Shown here: piece after piece, positions 1 through 62,736 of the stretch
How positions within the stretch are numbered: the first letter of the stretch is position 1
Layout: each line of letters opens with the position of its first letter
Origin: Candidatus Pacearchaeota archaeon
GTDB taxonomy: Archaea > Nanobdellota > Nanobdellia > Pacearchaeales > GW2011-AR1
NCBI GenBank assembly: GCA_040879785.1
Contig: JBBDJR010000006.1
Span: forward strand, 64,410-128,409
Reading direction: 5' to 3'
DNA: 64,000 bases
Program-made: the position numbers and the translations under genes
The notes under the pieces: generated by a model
Databases searched by the model: none
What the model saw: the letters and a program-made list of their open reading frames with translations, nothing else
Told to the model about the DNA's origin: nothing

Positions 1-37
1 TTAAACACAAAAAATCTTAATCAGCTAAGTCTCTGTG

Positions 38-55
38 CCGACCAAGCTTGGACGG
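38..55 (+). repeat. REP-like imperfect palindrome/hairpin copy 1 (CCGACCA-AGCT-TGGACGG)
   Basis: 3 bp + purine-purine mismatch + 3 bp stem around a 4-nt centre. Same architecture as copies at 159, 412, 8619 and 30395. Confidence 0.6.
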
Positions 56-81
56 TGCAGTGACAAATTTCAAAGAAATTT

Positions 82-94
82 GGCTCCGTAGCTC
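82..94 (+). repeat. Direct copy A of tRNA-Lys nt 1-13 (GGCTCCGTAGCTC)
   Basis: Exact 13-nt match to the 5' end of the intact tRNA starting at 206. Followed by a TTTCCC...GGGAAA hairpin. Confidence 0.8.
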
Positions 95-141
95 TTTCCC
101 AAGTAACGTCGGGAAACGTAGCGAGGAGACGATTGAAACGA

Positions 142-154
142 GGCTCCGTAGCTC
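142..154 (+). repeat. Direct copy B of tRNA-Lys nt 1-13 (GGCTCCGTAGCTC)
   Basis: Exact 13-nt match. Followed by hairpin copy 2 and a GTAGAGGGAG box. Confidence 0.8.
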
Positions 155-158
155 TAAG

Positions 159-176
159 CCGGCCACGCATGGACGG
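159..176 (+). repeat. REP-like hairpin copy 2 (CCGGCCA-CGCA-TGGACGG)
   Basis: Same stem / R-R mismatch / stem layout as the other copies. Confidence 0.6.
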
Positions 177-205
177 TTTTGTAGAGGGAGACTGAACAAA
201 GTGAA

Positions 206-347
206 GGCTCCGTAGCTCAGCCTGGTCAGAGCACTGGACTCTTATGAATAACTTTCTTTAGAAAAGAAAGTTCTGCGCTCAAAGAAACTAATACAGCGCT
301 TCTCAGGAGATATCCAGGTGTCGAGGGTTCAAATCCCTCCGGGGCCA
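206..347 (+). tRNA. tRNA-Lys (anticodon CUU) with a 67-nt intron at canonical 37/38 (intron 245-311)
   Basis: Hand-folded cloverleaf: acceptor GGCUCCG/CGGGGCC, D arm GCUC..GAGC, anticodon stem CUGGA/UCCAG, loop CUCUUAA after intron removal, T arm GAGGG-UUCAAAU-CCCUC, discriminator A. The intron has two internal hairpins, and GGAG near its 3' end can pair with loop CUCU (BHB-like). Confidence 0.85.
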
Positions 348-397
348 TAAGGGGATTTGGGATGTAGTAGGCGTGAGGAACCCGCAGATGGTGCTCA

Positions 398-462
398 TTC
401 AAATCCCTTGGTCGGCCAAGCTTGGACGATCAAGAGTGAACCTGGTGAACTCTCCGGAACCA
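398..462 (+). repeat. Two degenerate direct copies of the tRNA-Lys 3' end (398-418 TTCAAATCCCTTGGTCGGCCA; 450-462 CTCTCCGGAACCA), with hairpin copy 3 at 412-429
   Basis: Compared by eye with the genuine 3' end TTCAAATCCCTCCGGGGCCA (328-347). Confidence 0.6.
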
Positions 463-467
463 TAAAA

Positions 468-953
468 ATGCTAACAAAAAAACAAACATCTATCCTGATA
501 ATATCTGCAATAATTATGGTATTAGGCTCTACTTATCTTATAGGAAATATCACAGGGAACTTCAGCCTATTTGAAAAAAGCGACGAAACACAAACTCTCG
601 AAGAATGCGTTGAAGCCTGCAAAGAAATGCAATCCAAACTATTCAGGATAGTCCCTGAATCTGAAGAGTACGCTCAACAGCTAGAAAAAATAAACAAAAA
701 TAAAGAGCAATGCCTCTCACTAAATGAATTAGAAGAAGAGCCTTTAAGCGAAGAAGAAATTCTTGAAAGTTGTGGATATATCGACGGACAATTAGACAGA
801 AAAGAAAATGACTGTGTCTCTTCAGGCGAAACAATTTACATTGAAGAAAACGAAAGCTGTGAGGAAGGAATTCAGAGATGTTGCTCTGGAAGAGGACTTT
901 GTGGAAAAGACCAACTCAGTATACCGGATCACGTCGTCTGTCTTTCTTATTAA
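468..953 (+). CDS. Small membrane-anchored, Cys-rich acidic protein (hypothetical)
   Basis: ORF 357..953 trimmed to the ATG at 468, because the upstream part is tRNA-flank repeat. N-terminal TM helix ILIISAIIMVLGSTYLIG and a C-terminal Cys cluster. Confidence 0.5.
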   Translation: MLTKKQTSILIISAIIMVLGSTYLIGNITGNFSLFEKSDETQTLEECVEACKEMQSKLFRIVPESEEYAQQLEKINKNKEQCLSLNELEEEPLSEEEILESCGYIDGQLDRKENDCVSSGETIYIEENESCEEGIQRCCSGRGLCGKDQLSIPDHVVCLSY

Positions 954-2091: not shown

Positions 2092-4443
2092 ATGCCAAAA
2101 AGACCTCAAAAACCAAGAGAGCTAAAAATTGCAGAAGAATTTTTTCCAGCAGACCCTGGGAACATAAAATATTCTGTAGAAAAAAAGTTTAGTCCACTGA
2201 GTCCTTTAATAAATATTGAAGCTAAAAAACCTAGAAAAAAGACTCTCAAGACAAAAAGAGCAATAAAAAAGAAAACTGCAAGAAAAACCAAAAAGACAAC
2301 TAGGAAAAAAGCTACAAAGAAAAGGGCGACAAAAAGAGCAACAGAATTTAAGATTCCAAAAATAAAACTAAAGAAAGATGGTTACGAACTTATCGTAACG
2401 GAGAAACCTCAGGCAGCAGTAAAAATTGCAAACGCCCTCGGAAAATCCACAAAAAGAGTTATCAACGGAGTTTCTTATTATGAAATTGACCGGCCCGGAA
2501 AACAGGAAGGAATAATCGTCGCGTGCGCCGTCGGACACCTCTTCACATTAAAACAGGAAAAACCAAGAGTAAGCGGGCCTGTTTTTGATTTATTATGGGT
2601 TCCAAACCATTATGTAAGAAAAAACGATTTCAGTAAAAAATACCTGGACGTCATGACAAAACTTGCACGAAACGCCGGGGCAGTCACAATAGCGACAGAC
2701 TATGATATAGAAGGAGAGGTTATAGGACTCAATATAATCCGTTTCGCAGCAGGGCAAAAAGACGCCAACAGAATGAAATTCTCAACACTGACAGAAAAAG
2801 AACTTAATGACTCATATGAATCAAAATTAAAGAGCATTGATTGGGGCCAGGCAATTGCAGGAGAGACAAGGCATTTTCTTGACTGGTTTTACGGAATAAA
2901 TCTTTCAAGAGCACTAATGAAATCATTAAAATCTGTAGGAAAATTTAAGTTAATGTCTATAGGAAGAGTCCAGGGTCCCGCATTAAATCTCATAGTCAAA
3001 AAAGAAAAAGAAGTCCAAAAATTCAAACCAAAACCCTATTGGCAAATCTTCATAACACTTGAAGAACCAGAGATAGAACTTATTCACAACAAAGACATTT
3101 TTGATAAATCGGAGCTAAAAAAATTTGAAAACCTAATAGGAAAAACAGGGCAAGCAGAAACAAAAAAGAAAGAAAAAGAAATCCCTCCAAAAATCCCTTT
3201 CAACCTTACAACACTCCAAACAGAATCTTACAGGCTTTTTGGAATAAACCCATCAAAGACTCTCCAGCTCGCTCAAAGCCTTTATCTTAACGGGTTAATT
3301 TCATATCCAAGGACATCAAGCCAGAAACTCCCTCCTTCAATAAACTACAGATCCATTTTAAGCAAAATCGCAAAATCGTACAGAGCGGAAAAATTCATCA
3401 AAAGAGAAAAACCTGTTGAAGGAGAAAAATCCGACCCTGCGCACCCTTCAATATACCCTACAGGCGAAACAGAAAACCTACAATCCCTGTCTGATGACGA
3501 AAAAAAGATTTATGATTTAGTTGCAAGAAGGTTCCTATGCCTTTTCATGGAAAACGCGGTGATTGAAGACAAAAAAATAACAGTAAAAGTTGACGACCTC
3601 GGCTTCTACAAAAAAGGCTCAGAAATAAAAAACAAATCCTGGCTTCAGTTCTACCCTCAAAAAGTTAAGGAAGAAGAAATTCCTGATGTAAATGGAGAGG
3701 TGAAAGTTAAGGACTCAAGAAACGAAGAAAAAGAAACACAGCCTCCAAAAAGATTCACTCCGGCATCACTCGTCTCGGAACTTGAGAAAAGAAATCTCGG
3801 AACAAAGGCAACAAGATCCAATATCCTTGAAACTCTCTATAATAGAGGATACATAAAAGACCAAAGCATCAAACCAACTCCGTTAGGAATGTCCTTAATT
3901 GATACTCTTGAAAAGCACTCCCCTATAATAATTGACGAAAAGTTGACAAGAGAATTTGAAAACCAGATGGAATCTATACGGGAATCAGGAAAGAACAGCG
4001 ACGAAAAAAAGAATAATGTTATCAGCAAAGCAAAAGAAACCATAACCGAAATCTCAAATCAGTTCGACAAAAAACAAGAAACAATAGGCGAAGAAATCTC
4101 AAAAGCGAACGACAAGCTAAGAGAACAGCAAAAAGAAGAAAACAAACTTAATATTTGTCCTGTCTGTAAGAAGGGAAGTCTTGGAATTATGTACTCCAAA
4201 AAAACGAGGAGATATTTTGTTGCCTGCGACGCGTACCCTGACTGCAAAAACACCTACTCCCTGCCACCAAACGGACTAATAAAGAAAACGGACAAAATCT
4301 GCGAAGAATGCGGATTCCCAAAAGTCATGAGGCTGAGCAAAGGACGCCGGCCGTGGGAATTCTGCTTTAACAGAGATTGCCCAACAAACAAGAAGCGGAT
4401 TGAGGAATATAATCGGAGGAAAGCTGAAGAGGTGGAAGAATAG
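2092..4443 (+). CDS. topA: DNA topoisomerase, type IA, with a Lys-rich N-terminal extension and C-terminal zinc ribbons
   Basis: TOPRIM motifs ELIVTEKPQAA and TDYDIEGE, active-site region ISYPRTSSQKL, and two C-terminal Cys4 ribbons (CPVCKK...CDAYPDC and CEECG...CFNRDC). Confidence 0.9.
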   Translation: MPKRPQKPRELKIAEEFFPADPGNIKYSVEKKFSPLSPLINIEAKKPRKKTLKTKRAIKKKTARKTKKTTRKKATKKRATKRATEFKIPKIKLKKDGYELIVTEKPQAAVKIANALGKSTKRVINGVSYYEIDRPGKQEGIIVACAVGHLFTLKQEKPRVSGPVFDLLWVPNHYVRKNDFSKKYLDVMTKLARNAGAVTIATDYDIEGEVIGLNIIRFAAGQKDANRMKFSTLTEKELNDSYESKLKSIDWGQAIAGETRHFLDWFYGINLSRALMKSLKSVGKFKLMSIGRVQGPALNLIVKKEKEVQKFKPKPYWQIFITLEEPEIELIHNKDIFDKSELKKFENLIGKTGQAETKKKEKEIPPKIPFNLTTLQTESYRLFGINPSKTLQLAQSLYLNGLISYPRTSSQKLPPSINYRSILSKIAKSYRAEKFIKREKPVEGEKSDPAHPSIYPTGETENLQSLSDDEKKIYDLVARRFLCLFMENAVIEDKKITVKVDDLGFYKKGSEIKNKSWLQFYPQKVKEEEIPDVNGEVKVKDSRNEEKETQPPKRFTPASLVSELEKRNLGTKATRSNILETLYNRGYIKDQSIKPTPLGMSLIDTLEKHSPIIIDEKLTREFENQMESIRESGKNSDEKKNNVISKAKETITEISNQFDKKQETIGEEISKANDKLREQQKEENKLNICPVCKKGSLGIMYSKKTRRYFVACDAYPDCKNTYSLPPNGLIKKTDKICEECGFPKVMRLSKGRRPWEFCFNRDCPTNKKRIEEYNRRKAEEVEE

Positions 4444-4453
4444 AGAATAATAT

Positions 4454-4846
4454 TTAATCTTTCATCCTTAAATATCTCTCAATTAAACTTCTTGTACTTT
4501 TAGAGATTCTTACTTTGCTATTAGAATTATACCAAGTAACATATTTGACTTCTTTCCTTGGTCTTAAATGCCCGTAGGTTTTAATCAGGAAAACCTTAGC
4601 ATGATTTATAACATATTTTCCTTTATGGTCTTTCCACTTTCTTCCTTTATAACTAAAAAGATATTTTGCATTTTTTGTTTTAAGCCCTGTTTCTTCTCTC
4701 AACTCTCTTATGGCGGCTTTCTTTCTTGTTTCTTTTCCGTCAGCTCCGCCACCTGGAAGAGCAAAAAGCTTTCTCCCTCCAGCAACTACCAAGATTCCTT
4801 TTTCTGATTCTACAATAGCTACCCCTTTTCTTCTTATCCTAGTCAT
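4454..4846 (-). CDS. NUDIX hydrolase
   Basis: Nudix box GGADGKETRKKAAIRELREETGL. Confidence 0.8.
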   Translation of the reverse strand: MTRIRRKGVAIVESEKGILVVAGGRKLFALPGGGADGKETRKKAAIRELREETGLKTKNAKYLFSYKGRKWKDHKGKYVINHAKVFLIKTYGHLRPRKEVKYVTWYNSNSKVRISKSTRSLIERYLRMKD

Positions 4847-5471
4847 TTTTTAGTAAATTTATTGTTTTAGTATACAGCCTTTTACTTTTTGCTTCTCGTC
4901 TATTTAACAACCTTTTAAGCAAAAAATCATATTCATATAATATTCTCTTGTTCTTAATTAAAGTTACTCTAGCAAGAGTATATCTTAAATTAGATTCTCT
5001 TTTTCTGTCCATATATTTCTTAATCTTTTCAAACTTATTTTTTTCTAACTTCATAGCTATAGTGGCATGAGGATGATATTCTCTTATCATCTTAAAAAGT
5101 CCTAGAAAAGAACGAACATCTGTTGAACTTAAAATACAATATGATTTCAATTTATTAATTAAATCTCTCCTAAAACCAATTAATTCCTTACTAGGTTTTA
5201 TTTCTCTATAAACCACTCTTGTTTTACTAAAACTCCCAAAACCAGAAATATTAAATCTAATTAATGGGTGATTTTCACAGACTTGCTTAAAATCTTTCAC
5301 TAGTCTTTTTTGATTAGATGTAGAAAAAGGAGCTACAATTGTAATATGCGGGACAGGTCTTTTTAATTTAGCATTTCCCAATCTAAATTTTTTATCAACC
5401 TCATAAATTAATTTTTTTAAATCCCTTTTAGATTTTCCTTGAAATCTAAATTCTATTAAATAATGTGTCAT
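4839..5471 (-). CDS. 2H phosphoesterase superfamily protein (LigT / 2'-5' RNA ligase-like cyclic phosphodiesterase)
   Basis: Two HxT motifs (PHITIV and HPHATIA) at typical spacing. Overlaps the downstream Nudix gene by 8 nt. Confidence 0.65.
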   Translation of the reverse strand: MTHYLIEFRFQGKSKRDLKKLIYEVDKKFRLGNAKLKRPVPHITIVAPFSTSNQKRLVKDFKQVCENHPLIRFNISGFGSFSKTRVVYREIKPSKELIGFRRDLINKLKSYCILSSTDVRSFLGLFKMIREYHPHATIAMKLEKNKFEKIKKYMDRKRESNLRYTLARVTLIKNKRILYEYDFLLKRLLNRREAKSKRLYTKTINLLKND

Positions 5472-8545: not shown

Positions 8546-8618
8546 CCCAAGAAATGAAGATTAAAAAGTTTTTATCTACTCTAGTGTTATATCCAACCTT
8601 TCCTAAAAACTCCTTAAT

Positions 8619-8637
8619 TTGACCACACTTGGGCGAA
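8619..8637 (+). repeat. REP-like hairpin copy 4 (TTGACCA-CACT-TGGGCGAA)
   Basis: Near-identical to the tRNA-Ile leader copy at 30395. Lies between radB and the PIN-like gene. Confidence 0.6.
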
Positions 8638-8652
8638 TTAGTGGCATATTTC

Positions 8653-27700: not shown

Positions 27701-28060
27701 CTAACTTATCTCGGAACCATTCTCAATATCTTTCTCGGGAGAAATCAAAACAACTTCTTTTTCCTTGCTCTCTTCTGAAATTGCCGAAGCAGCTAATAGC
27801 ATCCCCTGACTTTCAACACCTCTCAACTTTCTCGGCTTCAAATTTGAGAAATAAATTATTTTCTTTCCTTTCAAATCTTCATTGGAGTAGAACTCCTTCA
27901 ACCCCGCACAAACAACCCTCTCGCCAATTTCGGGACCAACGTCTAAAGAAATCTTATACAATTTATCTGCACCTTCGATATCTTCAACCTGTTTGATTTC
28001 TGCAACTCTTAAATCAAGTTTTACCCAATCCTCAAAATCAACTTCTTTTATACCTTCCAT
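27701..28060 (-). CDS. Stand-alone tRNA-binding OB domain (Trbp111/EMAP-like; MetRS C-terminal domain encoded separately)
   Basis: KLDLRVAEIKQVEDIEGADKLYKISLDVG...GVESQGMLLAA. Overlaps the metG stop by 13 nt. Confidence 0.8.
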   Translation of the reverse strand: MEGIKEVDFEDWVKLDLRVAEIKQVEDIEGADKLYKISLDVGPEIGERVVCAGLKEFYSNEDLKGKKIIYFSNLKPRKLRGVESQGMLLAASAISEESKEKEVVLISPEKDIENGSEIS

Positions 28061-30343: not shown

Positions 30344-30351
30344 TTATAAAA
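30344..30351 (+). promoter_or_regulatory. TATA-box-like element (TTATAAAA) about 30 nt upstream of the outer tRNA-Ile 5' copy
   Basis: Position relative to 30378. No TATA-like element lies at -30 of the intact tRNA (30437). Confidence 0.4.
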
Positions 30352-30377
30352 CCTAGTAGTCCTTATTTTTTATCAAA

Positions 30378-30390
30378 GAGCCTGTAACTC
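30378..30390 (+). repeat. Direct copy of tRNA-Ile nt 1-13 (GAGCCTGTAACTC)
   Basis: Exact 13-nt match to 30437-30449. Confidence 0.85.
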
Positions 30391-30417
30391 TGGTTTGACC
30401 ACGCGTGGGCGAATCAG
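30390..30417 (+). repeat. REP-like hairpin copy 5, extended 12-bp imperfect palindrome (CTGGTTTGACCA-CGCG-TGGGCGAATCAG)
   Basis: Hand-paired: 9 Watson-Crick pairs, 2 G-U pairs and 1 A-G mismatch. Confidence 0.65.
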
Positions 30418-30436
30418 TAGTGAGGGCTAACGAAGG

Positions 30437-30510
30437 GAGCCTGTAACTCAGCCAGGTAGAGTGCCACTCTGATAAGGTGGAAGTCCACGGTTCAAATCCG
30501 TGCAGGCTCA
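30437..30510 (+). tRNA. tRNA-Ile (anticodon GAU), intronless
   Basis: Cloverleaf GAGCCUG-UA-ACUC-AGCCAGGUA-GAGU-G-CCACU-CUGAUAA-GGUGG-AAGUC-CACGG-UUCAAAU-CCGUG-CAGGCUC-A. Confidence 0.9.
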
Positions 30511-30589
30511 TGGGATTTGAAGCGCTTGCGGTTTCGTTCGGATTTCTATAAGAAAGGCGGACGAGGTTCGGAACTTCAGTTCCAGGGCC

Positions 30590-30607
30590 CAAATCCGTGC
30601 AGGCTCA
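30590..30607 (+). repeat. Direct copy of the tRNA-Ile 3' end (CAAATCCGTGCAGGCTCA)
   Basis: Exact 18-nt match to 30493-30510; ends exactly at the discriminator base. Confidence 0.85.
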
Positions 30608-40950: not shown

Positions 40951-41023
40951 GTCCTGGTAGCTCAGTTGGTAGAGCGCACGGCTGTTAACCGTGAAGTCGT
41001 AGGTTCGAGTCCTACCCGGGACG
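40951..41023 (+). tRNA. tRNA-Asn (anticodon GUU), intronless
   Basis: Cloverleaf GUCCUGG-UA-GCUC-AGUUGGUA-GAGC-G-CACGG-CUGUUAA-CCGUG-AAGUC-GUAGG-UUCGAGU-CCUAC-CCGGGAC-G. Confidence 0.9.
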
Positions 41024-41147
41024 TTTGTGTGTAGGACGAAGAAAGGATGCAGGATCGAAAACCCGCAGGTGGTTTTCAGGTTCGACGAGCAAGTTCGCGA
41101 GAATAAATTCTTTAGCAAAAATTAAAATCCGAGAGGGCTTGCGAGCT

Positions 41148-41162
41148 GTCCTACCCAGGACG
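41148..41162 (+). repeat. Direct copy of the tRNA-Asn 3' end (GTCCTACCCAGGACG)
   Basis: 14 of 15 nt match 41009-41023. The single difference turns the acceptor G-U pair into A-U. Confidence 0.8.
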
Positions 41163-41805: not shown

Positions 41806-42918
41806 ATGGAACCTAAAAACAAAAAACCAAAAGTTCTTGTAGCAATGTCCGGCGGCGTAGACTCAAGCATCGCCGCGCTAATGATGAAAGAAAAAGGTTA
41901 CGAAGTTATCGGAGCCTTCATGAAAAACTGGTCTGACACAAAAAATGATTTTGGTGAATGCACTTGGAAAGATGACAGGCGTATGGCTTCCAAAATCGCG
42001 GCAAAACTTAAAATTCCTTTAATAACACTCGACTTTGAAAAAGAATACAGAAAAGAAGTTATTGATGAAATGTTTAAACTATACAAAAAAGGTGTAACAC
42101 CAAACCCCGACGTAGACTGCAATCAAAAGATAAAATTTCCTCTCTTAAGAAAAGCCGCAAGAAAACTCGGCGCGGAATTCATTGTAACAGGACATTACGC
42201 GAGAATAAAAAAATCAAAAAAAGGATACAATCTCTTAAGAGCAAAAGACGAAACGAAAGACCAATCTTATTTCCTTTACAGACTAAATCAAAGGGACCTC
42301 GCGAAAAGCATCTTCCCAATAGAAAATCTCGCAAAAAAACAGGTCAGAGAAATTGCAAAGAAAAACAAATTCCCTAACTTCGACAGGAAAGGAACAGTAG
42401 GAATCTGTTTTGTAGGAAAAGTTAACCTTAAAGAATTTCTCAAAAAGAAGATAAAACCAAAAAAAGGAAGAATCCTTGACCCTGAAGGAAAACAAATTGG
42501 AACTCACGACGGAATTTATTATTACACGATTGGCCAAAAAATAGGCCCGAAATTTGGGATAGAGATAGAAAGAGGAAAAGGCAAAAAACTAAAGAGATGG
42601 TATGTAGCAAGAAAAAACCTAAGAAAAAACGAGATAACCGCCGCGCCGGAAGAACACCCTCTCCTTTACAGAAAAGAAATCATAATAAAGAAAACTCATT
42701 GGATTTTAGAAACTCCAAGAAAAGACAAATCTCAAAAAGTTCATGCAAGAATACGCCAGGTCGGAGAACTTCTCCCAAGCAACATCTCTTATAACAAAAA
42801 AAAGAAACAATTTAAAGTCACACTAAACAAACCTATAACAGGAGTCAGCGAAGGTCAGGCAATAGTCTTATACAAAGGAAAAACCTGTCTTGGCGGCGGA
42901 GTTATTGGGTTTGAATAA
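41806..42918 (+). CDS. mnmA: tRNA 2-thiouridine(34) synthase MnmA (bacterial-type)
   Basis: PP-loop VAMSGGVDSS, TPNPDVDCN and GHYAR motifs. Confidence 0.85.
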   Translation: MEPKNKKPKVLVAMSGGVDSSIAALMMKEKGYEVIGAFMKNWSDTKNDFGECTWKDDRRMASKIAAKLKIPLITLDFEKEYRKEVIDEMFKLYKKGVTPNPDVDCNQKIKFPLLRKAARKLGAEFIVTGHYARIKKSKKGYNLLRAKDETKDQSYFLYRLNQRDLAKSIFPIENLAKKQVREIAKKNKFPNFDRKGTVGICFVGKVNLKEFLKKKIKPKKGRILDPEGKQIGTHDGIYYYTIGQKIGPKFGIEIERGKGKKLKRWYVARKNLRKNEITAAPEEHPLLYRKEIIIKKTHWILETPRKDKSQKVHARIRQVGELLPSNISYNKKKKQFKVTLNKPITGVSEGQAIVLYKGKTCLGGGVIGFE

Positions 42919-51951: not shown

Positions 51952-53307
51952 CTAACCCCTCTCAAACCCCTTAGCAATCCTCAACATCTTTTCTTCCTGA
52001 AATTTATCACAAACAATCTGCATTCCGACCGGAACTCCATCAACCTCTCCGGCAGGAACAGAAACCGCACAGTTTTCTGCCAGGTTTGAAGGTGCCGTCA
52101 ACAAATCATAGCTATACATTTCTTCAACAGAAATTTTTTCTCCAATTTTATGAGGAAGTTTTGGAACCGTCGGAGAAATGATACAATCAAACTTTTTAAA
52201 CGCTTTTTCAAACTCCTTAATAATCAGGCTCTTGGATTTTAATGCAAGATGATAATGCCTTCCGTGATATTCTTCTTTTGAAATCTCACTGCCGCCAAGA
52301 ACTCTCCTTAAAACTTCTGGACCTGAAGCATCCTCAATTTTCTTTCCATAACGCCTTCCGTCCAAACGCCTTGTGGCCGAGAAAAACTCGACATAAACTA
52401 AAGGGTAATACGTCTCAACAGCCAACTCAATATTCTCTATTTTCACTTCCTTAACATCAAATCCTTTATTGGAGGCGACTTCGCTTATCCTTTCTTCAAC
52501 CAAGTCCTGAATCTTTTTATCAACTCCTTTAACTTTTAAGACACCAATAGTCAACTTTTTATCTTTATTATTGAGATTCTTCAAATTAACTTTCTCCGAA
52601 TCCTGCGAGGTAGAATCATTCCTATCTTTCCCTGAAATAACACTTAGAAGCAATGCAGCGTCAGAAACATTTCTTGCCAAAGGACCAATCTGGTCTAAGC
52701 TCATTGACAAATCAATCAATCCGTAACGAGAAACACTTGAATAAGTTGGCTTCACTCCGACAACCCCACAATGAGACGAAGGATTTCTTATGCTTCCTCC
52801 AGTGTCCGAGCCAAGAGCCACATCACAAAAACCCGCAGCGACGGCAGCGGCCGAACCCGAAGAAGAGCCTCCAGGAATCAAGTCAGGATTCCGCGGATTT
52901 CTCGTCGGTCCAAAGGCAGAAGTCTCGCCACTACTACCCGAACAAAATTCATCACAATTTGTTATCCCAATTATGATTCCTCCTTCATCTTCTATCTTCT
53001 TAATGACTGTTGCATTATAGGGAGCTTTGTAATCTTCTAAAACCTTGGAACCACAAGAGATATTATAACCCTTAACATTTATAGAAGCCTTGACAGCTAT
53101 ACACAAACCAAATAATTTTTTAGTTTTTAATTTTTGCCTGTTTTTGTCTAAATATTCTGCTCTTTTCAAACACAAATCAGGTCTAATATCAATAAAGGCA
53201 TTAATTTGCGGGTTTTCTTTTTTAATTTTTTCAAGAAAATTAGTTACATTCTGCTTAACCGTTAACTTTCCAGTTCTTAATAAATTTAGCTTATGACTTA
53301 ATTCCAT
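51952..53307 (-). CDS. gatA: Glutamyl-tRNA(Gln)/Asp-tRNA(Asn) amidotransferase subunit A (amidase signature)
   Basis: GGSSSGSAAAVAAG and GSDTGGSIR motifs. Confidence 0.9.
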   Translation of the reverse strand: MELSHKLNLLRTGKLTVKQNVTNFLEKIKKENPQINAFIDIRPDLCLKRAEYLDKNRQKLKTKKLFGLCIAVKASINVKGYNISCGSKVLEDYKAPYNATVIKKIEDEGGIIIGITNCDEFCSGSSGETSAFGPTRNPRNPDLIPGGSSSGSAAAVAAGFCDVALGSDTGGSIRNPSSHCGVVGVKPTYSSVSRYGLIDLSMSLDQIGPLARNVSDAALLLSVISGKDRNDSTSQDSEKVNLKNLNNKDKKLTIGVLKVKGVDKKIQDLVEERISEVASNKGFDVKEVKIENIELAVETYYPLVYVEFFSATRRLDGRRYGKKIEDASGPEVLRRVLGGSEISKEEYHGRHYHLALKSKSLIIKEFEKAFKKFDCIISPTVPKLPHKIGEKISVEEMYSYDLLTAPSNLAENCAVSVPAGEVDGVPVGMQIVCDKFQEEKMLRIAKGFERG

Positions 53308-54400
53308 TATGATTATTTTCCATTAAATTTAATTGTTCCCTTGGGATATATCCTTTTGGATTTTTGTTCAAAAGTTTCAAAGCTCTATAAACATAAACAC
53401 TTCTTATCTTTCCCTTATTTGAAGGATATGTCCATGACTCAACACTTCTCAAAGATTTTATATATTTATATCTTGCCTTAATGTTTAATAATTCCTCATC
53501 CAATTTTTTAATCCTAATCTCTCTAAATAAATTTTTTAATTCTTGATTTAAGGGGATTGTTAATTTTCCTAAAAAATCTTCGCCCAAAAATATCTTGTTT
53601 GCGCTATATCTTCTCTTTTTATGGGAAAGTAATGGAACAATCTGTTTATAAAATTCCCAAGAATTCATAAATCCTGCAGTTTGTAAAGATAGTCTTCCAG
53701 TATCGCTTCTCCTTGATATGGAACAATTAATTCCCAATCTACCCAATAATTGTTTAGTTTGCTTAATCAGTTTATTGGAAGATGTTGAAATACAAAAATT
53801 TGCATGATCCAATATTGGCTTATTTTTTAAATAATAGTATTGAATATAACCATCTCCGTCAAAAAGCCCTGCCACAAAAGATTTTAGGATTTCTTTATCT
53901 TCTGACACCATAATTTGGAGAGGAACCTCCACAATTCTAACCTTTTTTCCTAAAGGAATTTTATAGTACTTGTTTAGAATATACCGAAGAGGAACCGAAG
54001 AGATATTTGCTTCTTTTCCATCAAAACTAAAGGTTAAATTGGTTTCATATTCTCTATTTATTATATCCAAATAATCATGGATTAGTCCTATATCTTTCTG
54101 ACACAACTTAACTCTTCCCTCAGTTGACAACAAAGAACCATCCGTAATAATGAACCCAAGTAACTTAGCTATTTTTGGAGTTGTTTCTTTTTGAAAAGAA
54201 AGAATTTTTCCAGATCTTCCCCTTAATTTCATTCCATCAAGAAAATTCCACATTTGATTTTTGGATATATTTATTTTATTAAGATTAATCATGTTCTTAT
54301 TTTTATCCCGGGAAGTTAGATTAATTGAACCTTTGACTCTACTAAGGATAACTTTATCCGTCTCAACATACAAATCAGGAAGATATATTTTATTGGCCAT
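53291..54400 (-). CDS. Free-standing double-motif LAGLIDADG endonuclease-like protein
   Basis: LLGFIITDGSL and FVAGLFDGDGYIQ about 100 aa apart. Overlaps the gatA start by 17 nt. Confidence 0.7.
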   Translation of the reverse strand: MANKIYLPDLYVETDKVILSRVKGSINLTSRDKNKNMINLNKINISKNQMWNFLDGMKLRGRSGKILSFQKETTPKIAKLLGFIITDGSLLSTEGRVKLCQKDIGLIHDYLDIINREYETNLTFSFDGKEANISSVPLRYILNKYYKIPLGKKVRIVEVPLQIMVSEDKEILKSFVAGLFDGDGYIQYYYLKNKPILDHANFCISTSSNKLIKQTKQLLGRLGINCSISRRSDTGRLSLQTAGFMNSWEFYKQIVPLLSHKKRRYSANKIFLGEDFLGKLTIPLNQELKNLFREIRIKKLDEELLNIKARYKYIKSLRSVESWTYPSNKGKIRSVYVYRALKLLNKNPKGYIPREQLNLMENNHNGIKS

Positions 54401-58576: not shown

Positions 58577-59371
58577 TTATTGGTCATACTTCTTCATGAC
58601 CTTCTTTATAGAATCGCTTATCTCAGCTAGAGAAATATTCATTCTACCACTTCTTAATAATTCTTCATAAACATTAAGTGTTAAGTCTTCTGGAATTTCT
58701 TCGGTCTTATTGGAAGAAGTTAGTTCTCCAGAACCTCTTAAGCTCAACATTGTTTTACTTATCTCATCCATAAGATCTTTTTTTGAAGATTTAAGACTTG
58801 TTCTCCAAAGTTTAGCAAATTTTTGATTATCATAATCCTTAACTACAACCCCCTCTCTTCCATAATTAGAATACTTACTTTCCCAAAGAGCTAATTTTTT
58901 AACGTCTCCAATCTCCAGCTTTCCCTCCGCAAGAGGTTCTAAAAAAAGAATCTTTTCTATTCCAGAATCGTTTAAGATCTCTCGTGAACTAGAGTAGGGA
59001 ATAAACCGATCTTCAGAGATTTTATAAAGATCAATTAAAAAGAATTTATTTGTAAATTCTGGTTTATAATTGATAGTATGAGGAGACATGAATTCCCCAT
59101 AAACAACAAAATCTTCAGAAAGATTATAAAGAGTGTAGTTTGATTTTGCCCAATTATTAAAATCTTTAAACCAATTAAATCTAAAATACTCTTCTCTTGT
59201 TAGAAAGTTTGCCCTGCTTCCTGTCAAAATCTGACCATTTAACACCCTAATCTGAGAATTACCTCCATCTAATTTCTCAAATACCTGTAACCTATCACTC
59301 TCCAAAATTTCTGGCACTTCTGTAAGATGAGGTATTGAAGGATATTTTATAAAATCTGTGTCTTGAACCAT
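58577..59371 (-). CDS. ATP-dependent RNA-ligase-like nucleotidyltransferase (KxDG family)
   Basis: KYPSIPHL; motif I EKLDGGN (Lys33); motif III VVYGEFM; motif IV FFLIDLY; motif V REGVVVKDYDNQKFAKL. Confidence 0.6.
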   Translation of the reverse strand: MVQDTDFIKYPSIPHLTEVPEILESDRLQVFEKLDGGNSQIRVLNGQILTGSRANFLTREEYFRFNWFKDFNNWAKSNYTLYNLSEDFVVYGEFMSPHTINYKPEFTNKFFLIDLYKISEDRFIPYSSSREILNDSGIEKILFLEPLAEGKLEIGDVKKLALWESKYSNYGREGVVVKDYDNQKFAKLWRTSLKSSKKDLMDEISKTMLSLRGSGELTSSNKTEEIPEDLTLNVYEELLRSGRMNISLAEISDSIKKVMKKYDQ

Positions 59372-62602: not shown

Positions 62603-62736
62603 TGGGCCTGCCAGGACTCGAACCTGGATCAACGGGGTATTCCGAAGCCCGCTCGCATTATGACAAAACGAAAAAGCTTGTCTCCCGCAAACTTCCTCAC
62701 CGAAACCCGTCATTCTGTCCATTGAACTACAGACCC
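62603..62736 (-). tRNA. tRNA-Arg (anticodon UCG) with a 62-nt intron after position 37
   Basis: Reverse complement folds as GGGUCUG-UA-GUUC-AAUGGACA-GAAU-G-ACGGG-UUUCGG[intron]C-CCCGU-UGAU-CCAGG-UUCGAGU-CCUGG-CAGGCCC-A. Confidence 0.8.

Follow-up and report, generated by a model that had tools for sequence, protein, structure and literature searches.

Partial copies of tRNA termini and hairpin modules in the flanks of a Pacearchaeota tRNA-Lys gene

Why is an intact tRNA gene flanked by several partial copies of its own ends? The question is raised by the tRNA-Lys gene at 206-347 (+) of a 64-kb stretch of DNA (the window; 64,000 nt of contig JBBDJR010000006.1) from Candidatus Pacearchaeota archaeon. 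The explanation to which we give an even chance is that partial duplications of the gene ends, made at the DNA level and combined with exchangeable hairpin modules, form a structured leader and trailer; the copies would be neither exons nor attachment-site scars. The repeats, their recurrence at other loci, the predicted folds, the covariation of one hairpin, the promoter positions and the gain of modules relative to orthologous loci are all observed.

Terminal copies around tRNA-Lys

The gene at 206-347 matches the Rfam tRNA family (55.4 bits) and is identified as tRNA-Lys(CUU) when ARAGORN is run with introns allowed (program output tRNA-Lys(CTT)); default ARAGORN overlooks it. It comprises exon 1 (206-244), a 67-nt intron at the canonical 37/38 site (245-311; bounds taken from the hBH, or relaxed bulge-helix-bulge, scan) and exon 2 (312-347). 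CCA is not encoded, and the cloverleaf is predicted with z = -3.1. The first 13 nt of the tRNA, GGCTCCGTAGCTC, occur as exact copies in direct orientation at 82-94, 142-154 and 206-218. There is no further match in the 64 kb, even with up to two mismatches; shuffled sequences give 0.24 matches on average, and none of 100 shuffles gave three. The preliminary description of this DNA, made from its letters, had reported the three 13-mers, the intact gene and the start of the upstream copies at mature position +1, and these points hold.

The leader holds three units (A, B and C), not two. All follow one plan: a copy of nt 1-13, an apical hairpin, a box of the form (G)AGU-(G)A-GGAG(AC) and a purine-rich linker. 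They are preceded by a promoter region (1-28, +) truncated by the window start, in which TTAAAC (1-6) is the end of a TATA-like box; its aligned counterpart in L006 and L069, orthologous loci that are also from Pacearchaeota, is TTTTTTAAAAC. Elsewhere among the archaeal loci this box begins about 31 nt upstream of the outermost copy. Module A (29-81, +) is the oldest. It consists of a decayed 5' copy, GTCTCTG (29-35), a hairpin of the family here called P (37-56, +), a closing strand CAGTGAC (58-64) and a small hairpin AAATTTCAAAGAAATTT (65-81); its minimum free energy (MFE) is -22 kcal/mol (z = -4.65), and it is orthologous to GGCTCTG..GACCACGCTTGGACG.. in L006 and L069. Module B (82-141, +) has the exact copy (82-94), a hairpin TTTCCC..GGGAAA (95-116), the box GTAGCGAGGAGAC (118-130) and a purine-rich linker; its copy is predicted to pair through nt 3-6 with GGAG and through GCU with AGC, and it has homologues in L006, L042, L065 and L069. 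Module C (142-205, +) has the exact copy (142-154), a P hairpin (158-177, +), the box GTAGAGGGAGAC (181-192) and the linker CTGAACAAAGTGAA. It is homologous to the sole unit of contigs L039, L073, L074 and L078, with compensatory changes in the hairpin, and is missing from L006 and L069, which share units A and B with the window.

Units B and C, each beginning with nt 1-13, are 60 and 64 nt long, with spacers of 47 and 51 nt; the final 13-mer belongs to the gene. Further spacers measure about 50-140 nt (overall 45-140 nt). Units A and C have the P hairpin in common and B has another; the parts common to the units are only the 13-mer, the box and the linker. One predicted fold is common to 28 distinct tRNA-Lys units, with at least five unrelated apical hairpins. 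In the MFE folds of the units, the copy pairs through nt 3-6 with GGAG and through GCUC with GAGU; the modelled unit looks like a tRNA cut down to its acceptor stem and D-arm. For most units tested, namely unit A, the unit at tRNA-Ile described below and most units of other genomes, z lies between -1.8 and -5.1.

A MAFFT alignment of 22 units returned no structure with RNAalifold, because the unrelated apical hairpins misalign; evidence for structure therefore comes from folds of single sequences and from an ungapped alignment of the P hairpin. Rfam 15 found only tRNA in window positions 1-700 (E <= 10) and in 20 related loci (gathering score). Two candidate identities were rejected. On inspection, the GUA/GA internal loop does not have the consensus positions of Box C/D, H/ACA or kink-turn RNAs. 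A CRISPR-like reading of GTAGC..GATTGAAAC (118-139) has an Rfam CRISPR-DR9 match at E = 1.9 and neither array nor cas genes: the 13-nt repeat is shorter than CRISPR repeats of about 23-50 nt, structured modules homologous to one another take the place of unique spacers, and an array is not present elsewhere either.

The trailer follows a similar design. It begins with a hairpin (348-408, +) in which the anti-T-loop segment GGGATTTG (352-359), complementary to T-loop and T-stem, is predicted to pair with the downstream copy TTCAAATCCCT (398-408); the loop includes AACCCGCAGATGGT (379-392), which is shared with the trailer of tRNA-Asn. There follow a P-type hairpin module of 45 nt (409-453, +; hairpin at 410-431) and the segment CCGGAACCATAA (454-465, +), which corresponds to the tRNA end CCGGGGCCA plus the first three trailer nucleotides, TAA. 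With the 45-nt module removed, TTCAAATCCCT and CCGGAACCATAA form one 23-nt copy of tRNA positions 328-350 with 21/23 matches. A match comparable to the second half occurs in 57 of 20000 shuffles. The extension of the copy 3 nt beyond the tRNA end points to duplication at the DNA level.

What had been described as two progressively degenerate 3' copies is therefore one copy split by a module. The layered A(B(tRNA)B')A' nesting proposed with it does not stand either: the 10-bp complementarity between 37-46 and 407-416 is explained by both being copies of one palindromic hairpin, and the likeness of 409-418 to an acceptor strand by the GGCCA of the P-hairpin family. An outer tRNA built from GCCGACC (38-44) and GGTCGGC (410-416) was rejected on the same ground; Rfam finds no second tRNA. 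Of the four readings proposed in the preliminary description, that of structured leader and trailer layers is the only survivor, in altered form. Each layer is predicted to fold on itself; upstream and downstream layers do not pair as surrogate acceptor stems.

Exact-protein look-ups for DNA upstream of window position 1 gave only short Logan contigs that end inside the locus or short of it. SRR27977663 contains contigs whose proteins are 100% identical to those of this locus and which are probably of the same organism. Two independent short-read contigs from it (Logan) end near the locus by coordinate mapping: L107 inside tRNA-Lys at about window position 320, and L001 about 1.3 kb downstream of the gene at about 1660. 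The break in L107 would be consistent with assembly failure at repeats.

Modules at other tRNA genes and in other genomes

The other tRNA genes of the window show that the arrangement is not confined to tRNA-Lys. At tRNA-Ile(GAU) (30344-30607, +), a TATA-like box TTATAAAA (30344-30351) is followed by a copy of nt 1-13 (30378-30390), a P-type module (30391-30436; P hairpin at 30394-30413, +) and the tRNA (30437-30510). Its trailer has a 9-nt anti-T-loop segment GGATTTGAA (30513-30521) and an exact 18-nt 3' copy (30590-30607). The predicted fold of the locus consists of three self-contained modules. A near-identical box (GAGGGCC) serves a tRNA-Lys unit in L075, and the Ile box is therefore not claimed to be "adapted" to the acceptor of tRNA-Ile.

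At tRNA-Asn(GUU) (40951-41162, +) there is a 3' module only: the tRNA (40951-41023) is followed by the anti-T segment GTAGGAC (41031-41037), the shared AACCCGCAGGTGGT (41060-41073) and the 3' copy GTCCTACCCAGGACG (41148-41162). Its trailer and that of tRNA-Lys have AACCCGCAGRTGGT in common. The downstream copy CCAGGAC is a better partner of the 5' acceptor strand than the tRNA's own 3' strand CCGGGAC, and in the MFE fold of the locus the downstream copy takes the place of the real 3' strand. The fourth tRNA gene, tRNA-Arg(TCG) (62603-62736, -), has neither a 5' nor a 3' module. It contains a 62-nt intron at the canonical 37/38 site, inside which lies a near-repeat: the 3' part of the intron, GCGGGCTTCGG, resembles the exon anticodon stem-loop ACGGGTTTCGG. 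Default ARAGORN calls a shorter "tRNA-Asp" inside this gene.

The P hairpin can be written R-CCA-N4-UGG-R, keeps a purine-purine mismatch and is found five times in the window, which bears out the earlier statement that the spacers are related to one another and to the tRNA-Ile leader. Four of the five modules lie at tRNA flanks. The fifth (8602-8644, +) is a relic of an Ile-type leader unit, with CCTAAAAACTC, part of an Ile-type 5' copy, followed by the P hairpin TTTGACCACACTTGGGCGAA. It lies between two protein genes with no tRNA nearby, and Rfam gives no convincing RNA family match there (E >= 5); it is either a former tRNA-Ile gene site or a mobile unit. When the P hairpin is aligned with three homologues of other genomes, 95.5% of cells are paired and 13 cells in four pairs are double changes; the sequences had been pre-selected on the four pairs beside the mismatch, and the outer pairs were unselected. 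This degree of covariation was reached by 0 of 500 shuffles, and slid controls are far lower.

The layout recurs widely. Genomes were scanned, one per species, with a pattern of fixed CGTAGCTCT, a gap of 30-60 nt and GGNNNCGTAGCTCAG, in which five bases of the copy are left unspecified. The species genomes gave 37 loci, and at 21 of these the five unspecified bases equal those of the tRNA (chance 1/1024 each). A metagenome scan gave 68 matches, 34 of them exact and 8 with one mismatch. In all, about 55 further loci have the layout; carriers include Woesearchaeota, Pacearchaeota, 'Nanoarchaeota' and Micrarchaeota among the DPANN archaea, many Bacteroidota, and one bacterium of the candidate phyla radiation (CPR), a member of Levyibacteriota. 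The DPANN species genomes matched number about a dozen among 185,579 species representatives, and the same single pattern has 0 matches in viral contigs.

The layout is also present at tRNA genes outside the selection made by the pattern: at Cys, with 14-nt 5' and 20-nt 3' copies, at Val, and at Ser, where the 5' copy is 22 nt long and the trailer holds two units of 106 nt. In L042 and L065, 22-nt copies are nested inside 13-nt units. The sharp border of "13 nt then T" in other genomes is thus partly a product of the search pattern, because copies of 14 and 22 nt also exist. L042/L090 and L065 have another type of 5' unit between the 13-nt unit and the gene, in which the first 22 nt of the tRNA are repeated and followed by an unrelated spacer of 44-62 nt.

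Loci carry anywhere from no unit to more than 5, with decay in the distal ones; in L021, L034, L038, L045 and L046 there are tandem units identical to one another. In L034 (Woesearchaeota CAYXNX010000010.1, about 2780-3050, reverse-complemented locus) at least five tandem 53-nt leader units precede tRNA-Lys; the distal units, GTCTCCG, pair perfectly with the GAGAC box, and the proximal GGCTCCG, as in the tRNA, leaves a G-A mismatch. L040 and L070 have full-length tandem pseudo-tRNAs, which look like an early stage of the same process.

Bacteroidota have a counterpart hairpin, TCCCGAT-AGCT-ATCGGGA, which stands in for the D-loop, anticodon arm or T-loop of pseudo-tRNA copies. All but a few of its occurrences in 250 kb sampled are inside or beside such pseudo-copies, which flank tRNA-Arg(UCU), Lys, Val and Ser genes (L002, L005, L009, L014-L016, L019, L024, L036, L038, L045-L047, L055 and L056). 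It belongs to no Rfam family, and an exact-string literature search for the hairpin sequence was empty. This parallel arrangement merits separate study.

Orthologous loci bear on the history of the modules at tRNA-Ile. Six distinct relatives were fetched by ribosomal protein L15e, which is encoded downstream of tRNA-Ile (76-86% protein identity), and were unselected for repeats. All six keep the order aminoacyl-tRNA synthetase (aaRS), Zn-ribbon protein, tRNA-Ile, L15e, DNA ligase; neither the 5' unit nor the 3' copy is present in any of the six loci. Aligned with them, the window has an insertion of 59 nt before tRNA-Ile and one of about 100 nt behind it. The Ile modules were thus gained within a lineage, and the relatives do without them. 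The closest match to the 3' half of the Ile module is a tRNA-Lys leader in a different genome (L075), which indicates that modules are exchanged between tRNA genes. Absence from relatives, which the preliminary description had linked to neutral duplication scars, is thus found at tRNA-Ile; at tRNA-Lys the units are common to divergent genomes, including Woesearchaeota and Pacearchaeota. In one Pacearchaeota relative (L109) the interval between tRNA-Ile and L15e, 45-80 nt in the others, holds a 139-aa open reading frame (ORF) at 1032-1451 with no Pfam match.

A miniature mobile element could account for some of these observations. The 45-60-nt hairpin module would be inserted specifically at tRNA termini by a dedicated trans-acting enzyme, with duplication of 13 to about 25 nt of the target. 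The 64 kb contain five related modules, one of which interrupts an existing 3' copy while another is at a non-tRNA site; the gains at tRNA-Ile fit as well, as does the presence of one module family at different tRNA genes, always flanked by the recipient's own 13-mer. The imperfect hairpin with its conserved mismatch also recalls REP (repetitive extragenic palindrome) sequences and IS200/IS605 ends. Other features speak against mobility. The P-type modules have no terminal inverted repeats, their flanking duplications are of uneven length (2, 13, 14, 22 and about 23 nt), the apical hairpins of different lineages are unrelated in sequence, the window contains no transposase, integrase, reverse transcriptase or Cas gene, and viral contigs gave no matches. 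We consider a mobile element unlikely.

Transcription, processing and the origin of the copies

The position of the promoter indicates which copies would be transcribed. As noted earlier for this gene, the intact tRNA-Lys lacks a TATA-like box about 30 nt upstream. Of the 42 archaeal rows, 21 have such a box with its start 24-36 nt 5' of the outermost copy, mostly at -29 to -32, and in 0/42 is there one at that distance from the real tRNA; rows without a box have older decayed units further upstream, as in the window. At tRNA-Ile the spacing from promoter to outer copy in the window equals the spacing from promoter to tRNA in the relatives, which on alignment places the outer copy at the ancestral +1. 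Behind the outermost 3' copy of L004, L012 and L015 there are runs of T. Transcription probably starts before the outermost copy and stops after the outermost 3' copy.

Under the favoured explanation, the locus would be a composite transcription unit built by repeated partial duplication of the tRNA-Lys ends and by a small family of hairpin modules. Its transcription, its processing and the recombination that would have built it are inferred from the sequence. Transcription would run from a promoter before the outermost decayed copy through three leader modules, the intron-containing tRNA and the trailer. Each leader module would fold its 13-nt copy, or the decayed version of it, back on the GAGU..GGAG(AC) box below the apical hairpin, and the anti-T-loop segment of the trailer would pair with the repeated T-loop and 3' end downstream of it. 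Because each spare acceptor or T strand has a local partner, the real cloverleaf could fold and the modules would be tolerated. An RNase P-type activity and tRNase Z would take off the leader and trailer, and the splicing endonuclease would excise the canonical intron at 245-311 only. The borders of the duplications coincide with blocks common to most tRNAs, namely GUAGCUC ending at nt 13 and the UUCAAAUCC T-loop; modules may arise or move by unequal recombination or replication template-switching at these blocks, and units may multiply or vanish by slippage between the 13-mer repeats.

The promoter position also suits a different role for the copies, as alternative or split exons. The upstream 13-mer would be the real 5' exon, the transcript would start at the mature 5' end, and the endonuclease would remove the module together with the inner copy. 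The TATA-like box lies where a start at G1 of the outer copy would need it, as in the leaderless tRNA genes of Nanoarchaeum equitans (PMC3491384), and DPANN endonucleases accept relaxed motifs (PMC5829648). The motif that such splicing needs is missing, however. Strict and relaxed bulge-helix-bulge (BHB) scans find none that joins the copies (offsets 60, 64, 124) or cuts at 205/206, at the 5' end of the tRNA; the permissive helix-bulge-helix scan recovers the canonical intron and no in-register motif. The sole symmetric option, an AGCU/AGCU helix, would put U for A at position 14. Multi-unit arrays and decayed outer copies fit poorly, and the same layout occurs in bacteria, where this splicing system does not exist; an archaeal-specific mechanism is therefore unnecessary. 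The gene is intact and colinear, and mobile tRNA-intron-like insertions, which had been proposed alongside split exons, are not supported either. Exon use is the least probable of the readings considered here, and we give it next to no weight.

Integration scars are the other classical reading of tRNA fragments. Repeated site-specific integration of a virus or plasmid, one of the origins proposed at the outset, would leave the copies as attL/attR cores after loss of the element. The 3' copies start in the T-loop, a known location of the integration crossover. Partial direct repeats of tRNA ends beside an intact gene are the classical signature of such events (PMC9897764), and empty sites exist in relatives (six loci for tRNA-Ile; module C in L006 and L069), although this is a feature of any insertion or duplication. 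Against it, the spacers measure 45-140 nt, are structured, have homologues at other loci and are kept across species. The 5' copies lie directly against the promoter, at the ancestral +1, and no attP-like match was seen in viral contigs with the one pattern used. Pfam scans of 60 window ORFs found no integrase, nor a fragment of one, and no transposase, reverse transcriptase or Cas gene. This reading is largely refuted and must be regarded as very improbable.

Several observations weigh against the favoured explanation as well. The predicted folds of modules B and C are no more stable than those of shuffled sequences (z = -0.86 each), and the complementarity of copy and box is modest, as 61 of 1882 derangements that pair boxes with other acceptors score as high as the true combination. 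Nanoarchaeum equitans, a relative of this lineage, is without RNase P (PMC3491384), the type of activity by which the leader would be removed. Other points concern the constancy of the units. The distance from the TATA-like box to G1 of the outer copy is near-constant. At seven Woesearchaeota-type loci the module minus the 13-mer is 70-95% identical, against 40-55% in most pairs for the promoter DNA next to it; the upstream thioredoxins of L003 and L022 are about 57% identical over their last 35 residues (hand count). In Bacteroidota the unit before tRNA-Arg(UCU) follows, across families, five acceptor variants (GGCTCCG, GGTCCCG, GGCCCCG, GGTCGCG and GGTTCCG), although concerted evolution by gain and loss of units could cause such tracking. 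Units that are by-products and nothing more would be expected to decay or to disappear through slippage; the retention of at least one unit despite easy slippage deletion hints at a benefit, and persistence suggests a selected role that tolerated duplication does not supply.

It is possible, if doubtful, that the units are a selected cis-acting element of the pre-tRNA. Such an element could be a folding or maturation switch that adjusts how much tRNA matures, through competition of the real acceptor stem with the spare 5' strand and its anti-strand; it could be a protective hairpin at the 5' terminus; or it could be a tRNA-mimic small RNA freed by 5' processing, like RttR from the E. coli tyrT transcript. 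The constant promoter distance, the covariation of the P hairpin and the persistence of units that slippage between 13-mers could remove precisely all favour selection, as does the maintenance of modules across divergent Woesearchaeota and Pacearchaeota whose flanking DNA is randomised. So do the changes of copy with acceptor at the Bacteroidota tRNA-Arg(UCU), which lies in a Ser-Pro-Arg cluster. Alternative folds in which a spare strand replaces the real one are predicted for the Ile locus (centroid) and the Asn locus (MFE), and RttR is annotated within the tyrT repeats. On the other side stand the six relatives without modules at tRNA-Ile, the sparse distribution among DPANN species genomes, the variable number of units with their decayed distal copies and the ordinary stability of window units B and C. 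Such tRNA leaders have no Rfam family and no description in the literature searched.

The remainder of the window is of archaeal character. Its genes include TBP, L15e, aIF2-beta, MCM, a RadA-like protein and class I and II aaRS, and the nearest named homologues of its L15e are from Pacearchaeota. RNase P protein subunits are absent from the 60 ORFs, a 64-kb sample that is too small to be informative on this point. Genes related to RNA ends or tRNA are a LigT/2'-5' RNA ligase-family phosphoesterase (4839-5471, -), an RNA ligase (58577-59371, -), a tRNA-binding-domain protein (27701-28060, -) and an MnmA-like tRNA thiolase (41806-42918, +). A 53-nt tandem repeat (1467-1581; 2.2 copies, 87% matches) lies directly upstream of a small gene (1207-1473, -) whose single weak match is the winged-helix family WHD_DUF6293. 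An ORF with a LAGLIDADG homing-endonuclease domain (53291-54400, -) lies directly upstream of a GatA-like amidase gene (51952-53307), with an overlap of a few codons.

Known systems and significance

The closest analogue is the tyrT-tyrV locus of E. coli, which has 178-bp tandem repeats, each with the last 19 nt of tRNA-Tyr (rtT/RttR RNA, tpr). A check of MG1655 shows three tyrT copies at 178-nt spacing, the last of which overlaps tyrV by 19 nt, with RttR and tpr annotated. As at tRNA-Lys, tandem units overlap the end of a tRNA gene and each holds a partial copy of a terminus. According to reports by Egan & Landy 1978 and Rossi et al. 1981, the tyrT repeats are said to be co-transcribed with the tRNA and processed. 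They differ in being 3' only, long, near-identical and provided with a small ORF; there are no 5' copies at the promoter, no hairpins of copy and anti-copy, and no module family shared between tRNA genes. The Lys-type modules, in contrast, have 5'-terminal copies at the promoter, copy/anti-copy hairpins on both sides, a shared module family and a broad but sporadic distribution.

Other systems share single features. The tRNA fragments at attL and attR are likewise partial direct repeats beside an intact gene and are absent from some relatives; they bound kb-scale, integrase-bearing elements (PMC9897764), whereas here the DNA between copies is 45-140 nt long and structured, with no mobile-element genes. 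Disrupted archaeal tRNAs are similar in their DPANN hosts, in having pieces set apart by structured sequence and in the one canonical BHB intron. Unlike them, tRNA-Lys is intact and colinear, no BHB joins the pieces, and the pieces duplicate rather than complement the tRNA. The leader-trailer stems of rRNA operons are comparable in that flanks form helices which decide the release of a stable RNA, and in a synthetic RNase P riboswitch, hiding or exposing the leader can control RNase P cleavage (PMC7897497). In contrast to both, each flank here is predicted to pair mainly with itself, and there is no sign of control by a ligand or protein. REP palindromes and their mosaic elements (BIME) likewise consist of short hairpins that recur several times in a genome, keep a mismatch and show compensatory changes from copy to copy. 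They differ from the P hairpins, whose copies are nearly confined to tRNA flanks and for which no RAYT or TnpA gene was seen in the window; the Bacteroidota counterpart (TCCCGA..TCGGGA) sits inside pseudo-tRNA loops. The locus is thus not an att scar, a BHB intron or split tRNA, a CRISPR or a REP, because each of these fails a defining feature tested. We file it as kin to the tandem and partial duplications that overlap tRNA gene ends.

The arrangement is a risk to annotation. Default ARAGORN misses the tRNA-Lys gene, an ORF of 139 aa is called in L109, and Logan contigs break at or near the locus.

If the modules are merely tolerated, they would represent a route by which tRNA genes gain structured flanks, with the duplication made harmless by the anti-strand. 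Such a route would bear on models for the origin of disrupted and intron-bearing tRNA genes. Only with considerable doubt can the modules be proposed as an undescribed class of tRNA-gene-specific element, either a competition switch or a tRNA-terminus hairpin element, that would operate in parallel in DPANN archaea, CPR bacteria and Bacteroidota. Were this true in the switch form, competition for the acceptor strand would set the matured amount of tRNAs in high demand (Lys, Arg, Ile, Val); in the hairpin-element form, the module would spread into the termini of tRNA genes while regenerating the intact gene. Selection on the modules, if it exists, would make them the first natural leader or trailer elements to mimic a tRNA's own termini, and long leaders in a relative of the RNase P-less Nanoarchaeum would make the maturation of archaeal tRNA 5' ends testable.

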